64,000 nt of DNA from Candidatus Caldarchaeum subterraneum (GTDB lineage Archaea > Thermoproteota > Nitrososphaeria_A > Caldarchaeales > Caldarchaeaceae), in the NCBI GenBank assembly GCA_000270325.1, contig BA000048.1:515709-579708 (forward strand), in the 5' to 3' direction. Below the pieces are notes generated by a model. That model did not search any database. It was not told the DNA's origin and was given only the letters and a program-made list of their open reading frames with translations. Positions 15,409 to 54,304 of this stretch are shown here, piece after piece. How positions within the stretch are numbered: the first letter of the stretch is position 1; every line of letters begins with the position of its first letter. The position numbers and the translations under genes are program-made.

Positions 15409-16500
15409 CTACTCAACGGTGGGTATGTCGAGAAGCGTAACCTCGGGTGAGCCGTCGTCGGAGATGCTTGTGAAAACCCTGTCGCTGTGTATGAGTGAGA
15501 GGTAGCTGAAGGTTCGTGAAACAGAGGCCGGTGTTGACCTGTATCCCTCCTCGAGGAGCCGGTATGCGGCGGCGAGGCAGAGAACGTTCAGCTTAACTTT
15601 CCCAAGCGCTCTATGCAGAACACGGTAGGCATCCAGCAGAGCCCGTGACTCGGCCTGCTGCCCCCCAATCCTGAGACCGTGAAACAGCGGAACAAATGCT
15701 GTGAAGAAGGTCTGGTCAACTCTCTCCAAAGGCTTCTCAAACACATCCGACAGCTCGCGGACATTCTTCAGAAACCTCTGCGAAACACTGTAACGAGCCC
15801 GCTTCACCCTCTCGAGAAAACCAACATCCACCAGCCACTCCAGCCGCGGCGGAACAAAGTGCCTATACTTGGCGTAGAGACGGCTCTTAATCCACTCAGC
15901 CTGCGAAGCATACTTCAGCCGCTCCTCCCGAAAACCCGAGGCCTGCTCAAGCTCCCTCTGAACCGATGCACGCCTCCTCTCCGGCATCCTCCTCAACATC
16001 CTCCTAAGAGCCTCGGGATACACCTCCTCCATCACCGCATACATGGCCTCGAGACGGCTGAACTCACGCATCCCAGCCAACCACTTGAGCATCCCAGAGA
16101 AAATGTAGTCTCTGTTCAGCAAGGCGTGGAGAAAGAGCGTCTTCTCAACATCTGTCAACGTCAAAACCTCTGAGAGATTGGCCATCCCCTCACCTGAGAC
16201 ATGCCGCCGCAGAGCCTCCGAAGAATTGAGACAGATATACGCCGCGCCATAGAGGCCTGGCCTTCCCGAAGCCCTGTCATAGAACCCCAGCTGCGCAGCC
16301 AGCTTGACGTAGTTGCGTGCGTTAACCTCGGTCCTGAGCATGCCAGGCATCTCCCCAACATCGTTAACCAAACTCCTGCACGTCTCCAGCAACACCGAGG
16401 CCAAATAGTCAGGTGAACGTGGCGAACCATCCTCGAGGATGCAGGCGATAAGCTTCAGGTAACCTAGTCGACAGACGTCGCCGTGAACCTCCGCTATCAC
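15409..16500 (-). CDS. Hypothetical protein, 363 aa, immediately downstream of and overlapping a methyltransferase gene; candidate restriction/effector partner
   Basis: Long ORF, mostly helical by composition; 4-nt overlap (16497-16500) with the upstream methyltransferase; no recognisable nuclease or ATPase motif. Confidence 0.55.
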   Translation of the reverse strand: MIAEVHGDVCRLGYLKLIACILEDGSPRSPDYLASVLLETCRSLVNDVGEMPGMLRTEVNARNYVKLAAQLGFYDRASGRPGLYGAAYICLNSSEALRRHVSGEGMANLSEVLTLTDVEKTLFLHALLNRDYIFSGMLKWLAGMREFSRLEAMYAVMEEVYPEALRRMLRRMPERRRASVQRELEQASGFREERLKYASQAEWIKSRLYAKYRHFVPPRLEWLVDVGFLERVKRARYSVSQRFLKNVRELSDVFEKPLERVDQTFFTAFVPLFHGLRIGGQQAESRALLDAYRVLHRALGKVKLNVLCLAAAYRLLEEGYRSTPASVSRTFSYLSLIHSDRVFTSISDDGSPEVTLLDIPTVE

Positions 16501-17693
16501 GCTATCCTCACCATCCTCCGTGGCTCACCCTTCGACAAAACAAGAACCTTCTCCCTGTCAACCCCCTGCCAAGACTTGAGATACATCAGATACTTGTGCC
16601 CACGTCTTATGCCGTCGCTTATGATGGCGCGGGCTGTGAAACCGCTTTTCTCAGCAGGCTCGACCAAAAGCTCCGCCAAATCCACCCGACGACCACCCGA
16701 CTTGACATCACCCACAACCAGCACACAGTATCCCCCAGGCTTCAGCATTCTGAAAAACTCATCCAAAACCCTCCCCATAAACTCGACATAACGTTTAACA
16801 GACTGGGTGGCGAAAAGCCGTTTACCGACAACACGGTAATCATGCCCGAGAAACCAGAGCCTCAGCCAGTTATCCCAAGCATAAGTCTGCAGGTTGAGGT
16901 AAGGCGGCGAAGTTACTATGAGGTCGACAGACTCATCCGCTATAGGCAGCGCTGATGCATCCATGTTGAAGGCGGCGCCCCTCGCCTCAGGCAACCCATC
17001 AGCCAAAACAGACTCAGCCTTCCTCAGCAAACAAGCCAAAACATTTCTAACAGGCTTCTTCAACCCATGCTCCGCAACATACCTTCTCATGTAGCGCGGA
17101 GCCATCGAGAAAGAGTGGCTGCATGGAACGCTCAAACTAATCTCGGAAGAACCATGCAGGATACCGAGCATACAGGCCTTCACAAAGTTCGTCACATCGT
17201 CCTCGGAGTCCAGAAGCAGTTCTCTTACGGCCAGTATCTGTTTGAGGGTTTGGGGGTGGTAGAAAGCTCGGACATCTTCGTCGACGTCGTAGACCGAGAC
17301 TGCGTCAGGCCTCATCACTCTCGAAGCCTTCTCAACCCAGCTCCTAACATCTCTGAACATAGCCGGCTTCACCTTCGCACGGGTAACCACATAGGCCTCT
17401 GGAGCAAGGTCGTTTCCCACGCCGACGCGGCCAGTCAAACACGCCTCAAGCGGGGCCGTCCCCTTGCCCGAAAACGGGTCAAGCACAAGGTCGCCGCGCT
17501 CCGAAAACCTCGTTACAACCCAGCGAGCCAACGCCGGCGGAAAAGAGCCCGTCCTCGACATGATGCGGTGAAGCGAGTGACCCCAGCTCCTGCCAAAACC
17601 TTTCCACGAGTCGGAAACCTCGCCGCTGGAAATGTAAGCTATTTCCGTCATCAAAAAACTCGGACCAACCTGCTCCACGCTATAATCATTCAC
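16497..17693 (-). CDS. Amino-methyltransferase (N6-adenine/N4-cytosine DPPY family), motif I before motif IV
   Basis: FPPALARWVVTRFSERGDLVLDPFSGKGTAPLEA (motif X/I) followed about 185 aa later by VDLIVTSPPY (motif IV) and RMLKPGGYCVLVVGD. Confidence 0.7.
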   Translation of the reverse strand: MNDYSVEQVGPSFLMTEIAYISSGEVSDSWKGFGRSWGHSLHRIMSRTGSFPPALARWVVTRFSERGDLVLDPFSGKGTAPLEACLTGRVGVGNDLAPEAYVVTRAKVKPAMFRDVRSWVEKASRVMRPDAVSVYDVDEDVRAFYHPQTLKQILAVRELLLDSEDDVTNFVKACMLGILHGSSEISLSVPCSHSFSMAPRYMRRYVAEHGLKKPVRNVLACLLRKAESVLADGLPEARGAAFNMDASALPIADESVDLIVTSPPYLNLQTYAWDNWLRLWFLGHDYRVVGKRLFATQSVKRYVEFMGRVLDEFFRMLKPGGYCVLVVGDVKSGGRRVDLAELLVEPAEKSGFTARAIISDGIRRGHKYLMYLKSWQGVDREKVLVLSKGEPRRMVRIA

Positions 17694-52616: not shown

Positions 52617-52701
52617 GCGGGGGTCGCCAAGCCTGGTCAACGGCGCAGGACTGAGGCTCCTGTCCCGAAGGGGTTCGTGGGTTCAAATCCCACCCCCCGC
52701 A
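52617..52701 (+). tRNA. tRNA-Leu (anticodon GAG), type II, no intron
   Basis: Acceptor GCGGGGG/CCCCCGC, anticodon stem CAGGA/TCCTG with loop CUGAGGC, 14-nt variable arm, T-arm GTGGG-TTCAAAT-CCCAC, discriminator A. Confidence 0.75.
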
Positions 52702-53330
52702 TGTGCGACAACACAATTCCATAGCATGTTCACACCTTCCCTTTTCCCTCTTTTGATGGGGAGAATGTCGAGGTTGGCTCTTAAGAGCGCGTCAACGGGA
52801 TGCGTTCCATTTGCTATGTTGCAGAGGAGGGCTACAGCCAGCTGGCTACCATACCTGTATTTAGGCACCTTGATGCTCAGAAGACTCAGCGTCTCATCTA
52901 GCTCACGCTGCCTGCTCTCAGGCCTTCTGGCGAAATTCACGTCTTCTTGCTGGAAAATCCACGCCAAAGCATAGAGAATGTACTCCAAATCATATCCGGG
53001 AAGACCTTCAACAGCATGTCTAAACCTCTCCACAACAGTTGCGATGTTCGCACCTTGCCAAACCTCCACGATAGCTTTTAGGACCTGCATGGCCTTCTCC
53101 TTGTCGGCGCATAGTTTACCGTAGAAATCTATGGCGAAGTGGGCGTGCTTAGGTGTGTATGACCGTATTCGTGGCTCAAGCTGGTAAACAGTTCTCACTT
53201 TGAAATCGCGTTTGGATTTACTGTCTTCGGTTTTGAGCAGTATCCATCCGTTGCTGAGCCTGACTACCTCGAGTATTCTCCGTCTGTTCCTGCCCCTGCC
53301 AAAATATTCGCCAACCGATAGCATGGTCAA
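52683..53330 (-). CDS. Hypothetical protein, 215 aa, overlapping the downstream end of a methyltransferase gene; its 3' end overlaps tRNA-Leu by 19 nt
   Basis: ORF; 4-nt overlap (53327-53330) with the methyltransferase; no recognisable catalytic motif. Confidence 0.5.
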   Translation of the reverse strand: MTMLSVGEYFGRGRNRRRILEVVRLSNGWILLKTEDSKSKRDFKVRTVYQLEPRIRSYTPKHAHFAIDFYGKLCADKEKAMQVLKAIVEVWQGANIATVVERFRHAVEGLPGYDLEYILYALAWIFQQEDVNFARRPESRQRELDETLSLLSIKVPKYRYGSQLAVALLCNIANGTHPVDALLRANLDILPIKRGKREGVNMLWNCVVAHAGGGI

Positions 53331-54304
53331 ATCTGCGTTAACCAGCCGCTCAACGACAATCTGCCCCGTTCTTCCTCGTTTTCCGGCTTTCTGAAGATGT
53401 ATAGATGTTCATGGGCTATTTTGTGGAAGCCATATTGTTCAAAATTTTTTCCACTCCATTTTTCACGCGTCGTCTTCATTTTGTGCTGCAGCTTGATTAT
53501 ATCCTCTGCTAGAACAAAGCCAGCTTGCAAGAATTTCAGCATCACGTAAGTGGAGATAGGCACGTAGTGTTTGTGTTTTCTCGTGTCGCCGATGAGTATT
53601 GCACAGTATCGTCCTGGTTTCAGAACACGGTAGGATTCACGGGCTATCTGCATCATTTTTCCCAAATAGTCCTCTAGCTTTCTGTATGCTGAAAGATCGC
53701 CTTCAGGTCTTTTCCGTGAATATGGGATGATGTTCCAATAGGGTGGATGTGTGGCGATCAAGTCTACACTCTCATCTTCTATGATGTTGAGTTTTGCCGC
53801 ATCGCCGTGATACACTTTTATCACCGGTTCCTGTTGTTCATCCAGTGGATGGAATTCAAAATTGAGCCGGTCCAGCGTGAGTATACATGCTTCATAATTG
53901 ATGTCGACGCCTATCGCGTTTCTCCCCAAGAGTGTCGCCTCGACCAGCGTGGTTCCCGAGCCAACCATCTGGTCAAGCACAAGCTCCCCCGGTTTAGTGT
54001 ATTTTAGAATCAGGTTTCTCGGAACATAGGGGCTCCAGTTTCCCCTGTAGTCGCCGGAGTGTGTGGCCCAGTCGCCGCGGTCCGGAAAACTCCACACAGT
54101 TGTGGCCTCGAGGTTGTATGATGCCGGTGGGCTGTATGAGTTGATTTTATGTGGTTTGCCTATCTCTATCCTGACATCTTCTACCTCGACATAGCCTTTC
54201 TCAGCCACATAGCGGCGATAATCCTCCCAAGTGACGGGCCTCATGCTAGTCAACACAAACTGTGAAGACCCTGTGTCCAACAGCGTCCCGAACATTCTGC
54301 TCAC
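53327..54304 (-). CDS. Amino-methyltransferase (DPPY family), paralog of 16497..17693
   Basis: NWSPYVPRNLILKYTKPGELVLDQMVGSGTTLVEA (motif X/I) followed about 75 aa later by VDLIATHPPY (motif IV) and RVLKPGRYCAILIGD. Confidence 0.7.
   Translation of the reverse strand: MSRMFGTLLDTGSSQFVLTSMRPVTWEDYRRYVAEKGYVEVEDVRIEIGKPHKINSYSPPASYNLEATTVWSFPDRGDWATHSGDYRGNWSPYVPRNLILKYTKPGELVLDQMVGSGTTLVEATLLGRNAIGVDINYEACILTLDRLNFEFHPLDEQQEPVIKVYHGDAAKLNIIEDESVDLIATHPPYWNIIPYSRKRPEGDLSAYRKLEDYLGKMMQIARESYRVLKPGRYCAILIGDTRKHKHYVPISTYVMLKFLQAGFVLAEDIIKLQHKMKTTREKWSGKNFEQYGFHKIAHEHLYIFRKPENEEERGRLSLSGWLTQI

Follow-up and report, generated by a model that had tools for sequence, protein, structure and literature searches.

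What is a DNA methyltransferase gene doing beside a partner that belongs to no described protein family, and why does that partner end inside a tRNA gene? Two overlapping genes raise this question in a stretch of 64,000 nucleotides from Candidatus Caldarchaeum subterraneum (contig BA000048.1, positions 515,709 to 579,708), here called the window. We consider it rather likely that the pair is a Type II restriction-modification module, probably specific for GATC, in which the partner, a member of an undescribed family, would be the endonuclease. The two genes and the tRNA gene are arranged as follows; loci in other genomes carry L numbers.

53327..54304, minus strand: DNA methyltransferase of 325 aa with a GTG start, matching PF01555 and PADLOC MTase_II
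52683..53330, minus strand: partner gene and candidate restriction endonuclease of 215 aa with a TTG start, downstream of the methyltransferase
52617..52701, plus strand: tRNA-Leu(GAG), identified by ARAGORN and aligned with its ortholog in L008 and with the tRNA-Leu(CAA) of L001

The TGA stop codon of the methyltransferase and the TTG start codon of the partner share 4 nt (aTTTGAcc). L001 and L005 show the same TTG/TGA overlap. An alternative ATG start at 53324, two codons on, would abolish this overlap and was rejected, as both of these genomes retain the overlap and neither has an ATG nearby. The partner ORF converges with the 3' end of tRNA-Leu(GAG), and the two have 19 nt in common on opposite strands (52683..52701). 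The coordinates and both overlaps had been proposed in the first-pass annotation, and the ORF list, ARAGORN and the sister-genome comparison agree with them.

The larger gene encodes a DNA methyltransferase. It matches PF01555 (N6_N4_Mtase) at 8.4e-27 in two pieces and the PADLOC Type II MTase profile PDLC03376 from end to end (1.6e-72), and a homolog, also of 325 aa, is 95% identical at full coverage. Motif I (DQMVGSGTT, near aa 110) precedes motif IV (THPPY, near aa 186), and the Pfam pieces are swapped, with the C-terminal part of the PF01555 profile aligned first. In its motif order, the protein is a circular permutant of PF01555 that departs from the IV-then-I order of beta-class N6/N4 enzymes. 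Both motifs of a Type II methyltransferase are present, with H replacing the usual D, S or N: motif IV (window 53735..53749) reads HPPY, not DPPY, SPPY or NPPY, and this H is conserved in every homolog inspected.

The methyltransferase family is large (more than 6400 matches), and its neighbors vary. It occurs with this partner family, with DpnII endonucleases, with another unknown protein or with none (alone in L145), and the viral contigs searched held only distant relatives. These variable partners, together with the PADLOC Type II match, bear out the earlier suggestion of a restriction-modification system in which a methyltransferase is combined with different partners. Some bacterial members are longer. 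Methyltransferases of 532-561 aa (L035:8406-10004 and L041:8106-9791) carry an N-terminal Cys/His-rich segment and, at the C-terminus, a further domain of about 200 aa in which the 'ETTTVW' start of the catalytic domain recurs.

With more than 350 homologs of the partner, the gene pair stands well beyond chance. These homologs are about 191-199 aa long, 55-66% identical and, without exception, annotated as 'hypothetical'. On the archaeal side they span Caldarchaeales, Bathyarchaeia, Asgard, Aenigmatarchaeota, Nanoarchaeota, Thermoplasmata and Archaeoglobaceae, and on the bacterial side WOR-3, Ratteibacteria, Thermodesulfovibrio, Chloroflexota, Patescibacteria and further phyla. The family has thus spread horizontally across both prokaryotic domains. 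Searches of Pfam, NCBIfam, PADLOC and PHROGs gave no match, and neither did plasmid and phage records or viral contigs. No match was found to PDB sequences, and a profile search of them gave nothing meaningful. Pfam scans of individual members returned scattered noise, and ten longer, distant relatives carry no Pfam domain. Among 1.84 billion cluster representatives, a profile search recovered just 80 matches, many of them fragmentary. We found no description of the family in the literature, a search whose scope would not cover an earlier unpublished REBASE assignment.

Structure prediction gave a confident AlphaFold model of the partner (pLDDT 86.5, pTM 0.82), with an N-terminal sheet of four strands followed by seven helices and a disordered stretch of 26 final residues. 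Foldseek searches of the model against PDB and BFVD returned nothing significant. The model bears no likeness to solved members of the PD-(D/E)XK, HNH/His-Me, GIY-YIG, PLD or half-pipe groups, and as predicted it corresponds to no known fold. The most distant members are only about 20% identical, and the neighbor in L143 is linked to the family by hhalign at 87%. Even with these included, D40 and E127 are invariant, and K36, V43, H60, I123, N130 and G159 are at least 90% conserved. The invariant D40 and E127 and the near-invariant K36, H60 and N130 are candidate active-site residues. The segment 'D40-F-K42' invites a reading as a PD-(D/E)XK motif, which was rejected because K42 is R or L in several members and there is no structural match.

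The link between the two genes was surveyed at 54 genome loci from many phyla (counts of neighboring tRNA and DpnII genes below use 55 loci). Wherever the contig leaves room, the partner adjoins a methyltransferase 47-95% identical to that of the window, in tandem, reversed, convergent or divergent order. Where a gap seems to separate the two, the methyltransferase is a long variant that carries an additional domain at the C-terminus. The genes decay unequally. A broken partner accompanies an intact methyltransferase at five loci (L012, L053, L059, L060, L061), with lesions that include an in-frame stop in L012, an N-terminal loss in L053, frameshifts in L060 and a remnant of 40 aa in L061. 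Both genes are decayed at four loci (L051, L054, L055, L058). An intact partner beside a decayed methyltransferase was seen at none of the loci surveyed. The partner depends strictly and one-way on the methyltransferase, as an endonuclease does in a Type II system, and the pattern fits a toxic gene that needs an antidote. The partner fails the tests for all known nuclease classes and passes the genetic tests for an endonuclease.

At one of the decayed loci (L059:7412-11140), an insertion of about 3.2 kb splits the partner, with residues 1-101 and 127-193 set apart and the methyltransferase left intact.

Two loci place the pair among defense-type genes. In a sister genome, the partner is immediately followed by a CRISPR array (L005:8850-9235, repeat CTGATCCCGCAAGAGGGAATTGAAAG) and a Csa1 gene. 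A Nanoarchaeota islet (L040:430-4773) comprises tRNA-Ala, the partner, the methyltransferase and a protein of 683 aa that has a DGQHR motif and resembles Mrr at its N-terminus.

The recognition site is suggested by relatives of the methyltransferase. In L144 and L149/L150, a PF04556 DpnII endonuclease adjoins a methyltransferase that is 60-61% identical to that of the window and collinear over its full length, which ties the methyltransferase family to DpnII endonucleases. An operon of Candidatus Alkanophaga (L037:1003-3439) even encodes, in this order, a methyltransferase, a DpnII protein (300 aa, PF04556 at 4e-71) and the partner, and its methyltransferase is 80% identical to one found with DpnII only. 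The operon may represent a stage in the replacement of one endonuclease by another, or else a two-effector system. It strengthens the link to GATC, since the methylation that DpnII tolerates has to be tolerated by the partner as well. L050, L046 and L051 likewise have DpnII genes or remnants close to the pair. By analogy with these systems, the methyltransferase is probably of the GATC class. The partner itself does not belong to PF04556; hhalign against the DpnII protein of L037 gave a probability of 0.2%.

Avoidance of palindromes was tried as a second route to the recognition site and rejected. Of the palindromic tetramers in the window, GATC is depleted most strongly (36 observed and 220 expected, ratio 0.16), followed by GTAC (observed/expected 0.37), and across the 54 host loci GATC is again the lowest tetramer (0.47). 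The method does not discriminate, however, with control loci equally GATC-poor and some hosts undepleted. The GATC assignment therefore rests on the DpnII pairings, and GATC avoidance may be a wider trait of these archaeal lineages and not the work of one system.

The putative nuclease activity of the partner, the probable GATC site and the methylated base are inferences. The methyltransferase would mark a short site in the host DNA, most probably GATC, and would probably do so by methylating adenine at N6, and the partner, as a restriction endonuclease, would attack unmarked copies in incoming DNA. Several observations weigh against this proposal. The partner has no recognizable endonuclease domain, motif or fold, and genomic association is what assigns it a catalytic role. 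The HPPY form of motif IV leaves the methylated base uncertain. GATC is equally depleted in 79 unrelated archaeal control loci from metagenomes (0.53 vs 0.47, Mann-Whitney p = 0.46), several partner hosts show no GATC depletion, and no 5- or 6-mer is avoided in common across the hosts. The partner of L037 sits beside a complete methyltransferase-DpnII pair, where a second endonuclease is unneeded and an accessory role is possible. Finally, the window copy of the partner ends in a frameshifted tail, and its activity is not assured.

The strongest competing explanation takes up the accessory role. The partner would not be a nuclease but an accessory of GATC-methylation modules, such as a reader of methylation state, a regulator or a DNA-binding helper, and DpnII-type enzymes would cut where cutting occurs. 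The L037 operon, which unites all three genes, the DpnII genes near the pair in L050 and L046 and the absence of a recognizable nuclease fold would all suit this. However, a DpnII gene is nearby at only about 4 of the 55 loci. Elsewhere the pair stands alone, with no obvious selective reason for an accessory to spread across domains, and the methyltransferase operates in other contexts without the partner. The partner also contains no helix-turn-helix or other regulator domain, whereas some of the cognate methyltransferases have one of their own. We consider an accessory role unlikely and retain the partner as the probable endonuclease, because no other candidate for a nuclease is present at about 50 of the 55 loci and because the one-way decay suits a toxic gene with its antidote.

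The overlap with tRNA-Leu suggests another explanation, raised in the first-pass annotation, in which a mobile cassette formed by the pair would have entered the tRNA-Leu(GAG) gene at its 3' end, leaving the overlap as the junction. We regard this as improbable for the window. Two further features bear on it.

52683..52748, minus strand: frameshifted C-terminal tail of the partner, from comparison with L001 and L005
52747..58341, no strand assigned: 5.6-kb block with the partner, methyltransferase, thioredoxin-like, VTT-domain, MOFRL, deoxyhypusine synthase and LDcluster4 genes, from blastn of L001, L008 and L009 against the window

In relatives, the partner stops at about residue 195-199. In the window copy, 'agagGGgaaaag' (52746-52748) contains one G too many, so that the native TGA is lost and the reading frame continues for about 20 more codons. 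The resulting C-terminal extension is confined to the window copy and P0001 in the alignment of the partner family, and residues 188-213 are predicted with pLDDT below 50. The spacer between partner and tRNA is longer in L001, and the window lacks 92 nt of it. The 19-nt overlap is the sum of two small changes relative to L001, the +1 G frameshift and the loss of 92 nt of spacer; it is an incidental by-product and not an integration junction. The pair does lie directly 3' of a tRNA gene, as an island inserted at a tRNA would, but the window contains no repeat of the tRNA-Leu 3' end at a far border and no integrase among the neighboring ORFs.

Comparison with related genomes points the same way. 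The methyltransferase is 95% and 90% identical to its counterparts in two sister genomes and the partner 90% and 84%, in step with the deoxyhypusine synthase and MOFRL genes. The pair has diverged as much as its housekeeping neighbors and is therefore vertically inherited within this clade. Between reverse gyrase and the partner, the window is collinear with L001; beyond the partner the two differ in the tRNA-Leu (GAG vs CAA) and in the other downstream genes. The two tRNA genes are nearly identical over 30 nt at the 5' end and 40 nt at the 3' end. In L008 the 5.6-kb block is inverted relative to the window, a CRISPR array follows the partner, and the orthologous tRNA-Leu(GAG) adjoins the opposite end of the block, which includes the deoxyhypusine synthase gene. 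One breakpoint of the inversion lies at the tRNA-Leu 3' end. From these arrangements we conclude that the tRNA-Leu genes mark rearrangement breakpoints of a block with essential genes and not an insertion of the pair. An empty-site search in metagenomes by way of the MOFRL neighbor gave no clean empty site; it recovered a near relative with the pair (L062) and a distant relative that lacks it and has rearranged synteny (L063).

The tRNA-Leu(GAG) of L008 (L008:4843-4957), ortholog of window 52617..52701, contains a 29-nt insert after the D-arm (ATTACCCACCCACAGCTGGGTAAAGCCAG) that is absent from the window copy. The insert, with which the gene was missed by ARAGORN, is probably a non-canonical tRNA intron.

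The idea of integration at tRNA genes fares better for the family as a whole. A tRNA gene lies within 500 nt of the module at 12 of the 55 loci, and its 3' end faces the module in 11 of these 12. Within that distance are 14 of 28 flanking tRNAs, where 2.3 are expected (Poisson 1e-7). L040 is the only locus with a direct repeat of tRNA sequence: 22 nt from the 3' part of tRNA-Ala recur and close a 4.2-kb islet that contains no integrase. In other Caldarchaeales the pair occupies different loci, immediately 3' of tRNA-Pro or tRNA-Cys. The GC content across the window pair drops to 0.46-0.51, from 0.56-0.59 in the flanks. With its low GC content and these differing loci, the pair is of foreign origin, and it is mobile on a timescale longer than that of the window clade.

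It is very improbable that the partner is not a defense nuclease but a functional counterpart of MutH, an enzyme for strand-specific nicking or repair guided by hemimethylated sites: the constant tie to a probable GATC methyltransferase, the small size and the conserved acidic, histidine and lysine residues would suit such an enzyme, but the distribution is patchy and horizontally transferred, with about 60% identity across domains, the contexts are those of defense (the CRISPR array of L005 and the DGQHR protein of L040), the partner is frequently pseudogenized and linkage to MutS/MutL was seen at no locus.

The window carries another methyltransferase with an adjacent partner, referred to here as the first module.

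16497..17693, minus strand: first-module methyltransferase of 398 aa with motif IV TSPPY, matching PF01555 at 1.3e-16 and PADLOC PDLC03325 at 8.9e-50
15409..16500, minus strand: first-module partner of 363 aa, without similarity to the second partner

The two methyltransferases had been called paralogs. They are homologous, as both match PF01555 in two pieces with motif I ahead of motif IV, and BLASTP aligns them at 29% identity over 171 aa (E 1e-14) and 28% over 92 aa. A recent duplication is not supported, however, given this low identity, best PADLOC profiles that differ (PDLC03376 for the second methyltransferase, PDLC03325 for the first) and far closer relatives of each in other organisms. 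The two partners, also described as unrelated, show no relation by BLASTP or by profile comparison with hhalign. The first-module methyltransferase carries an m4C-type TSPPY motif. The first-module partner has 101 homologs at 93% down to 31% identity and no Pfam domain, and all but one of those with a named organism are from Nitrososphaerota/Aigarchaeota. Its sequences suggest a lineage-restricted, vertically inherited protein, unlike the second partner with its cross-domain spread.

Restriction enzymes are a classic case of unrelated folds that converge on one function. To our knowledge, every new restriction-enzyme fold has brought new chemistry, for example the glycosylase R.PabI. Based on its predicted model, the partner is a testable candidate for a new fold of this kind. 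More tentatively, it may found a new structural and catalytic class of restriction enzymes, unrelated to PD-(D/E)XK, HNH, GIY-YIG, PLD and half-pipe enzymes. Members would be thermostable and probably GATC-directed, would cleave DNA or excise bases, and would be exchanged between archaea and bacteria in hot environments, settling downstream of tRNAs without a resident integrase. The family is well suited to testing, as it is small in size, very conserved, thermophilic and confidently modeled, with a cognate methyltransferase and a likely site that can be guessed from its neighbors. If active, the partner would provide a heat-stable enzyme for a common 4-bp site and a new family for the profiles used in defense-system and genome annotation, where its several hundred members now all appear as 'hypothetical'. 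That the module is enriched 3' of tRNA genes, with no integrases, bears on how bare restriction-modification units move.

Three known systems can be compared with the window pair. Restriction-modification units are reportedly small mobile elements linked to local rearrangements, as Furuta, Abe and Kobayashi are said to have described in Nucleic Acids Res in 2010. The pair resembles them in its patchy distribution, low GC content, differing chromosomal sites in related genomes, the inversion breakpoint beside it and one att-flanked islet (L040). In contrast to such units, the pair of the window clade moves only within the 5.6-kb block with its housekeeping genes, and no target duplication flanks the window pair itself.

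R.PabI is a restriction enzyme of hyperthermophiles with an 'orphan' half-pipe fold, a DNA glycosylase acting on GTAC whose structure is in the PDB. Like R.PabI, the partner is a small candidate restriction protein of thermophiles that was found through its association with a methyltransferase and lies outside the classical nuclease superfamilies. It differs in having no sequence or structural match in the PDB, and its model, with four strands and seven helices, is not a half-pipe.

The module is closest to the DpnII/MboI-type GATC systems, which combine a PF04556 endonuclease with N6_N4-type methyltransferases such as DpnA. It likewise consists of two overlapping genes for a methyltransferase and a putative endonuclease, homologs 60-80% identical to its methyltransferase are paired with true DpnII, and GATC is the tetramer most depleted in the window. 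It differs in its permuted methyltransferase (motif I before IV) with the HPPY motif IV, and in a partner of about 195 aa (DpnII has about 290 aa) that shares no sequence or profile similarity with DpnII and has a predicted fold unlike solved nucleases. As we read it, the function is that of an ordinary Type II module, and the unusual part is the partner, a conserved protein without family or fold relative that is shared by archaea and bacteria.

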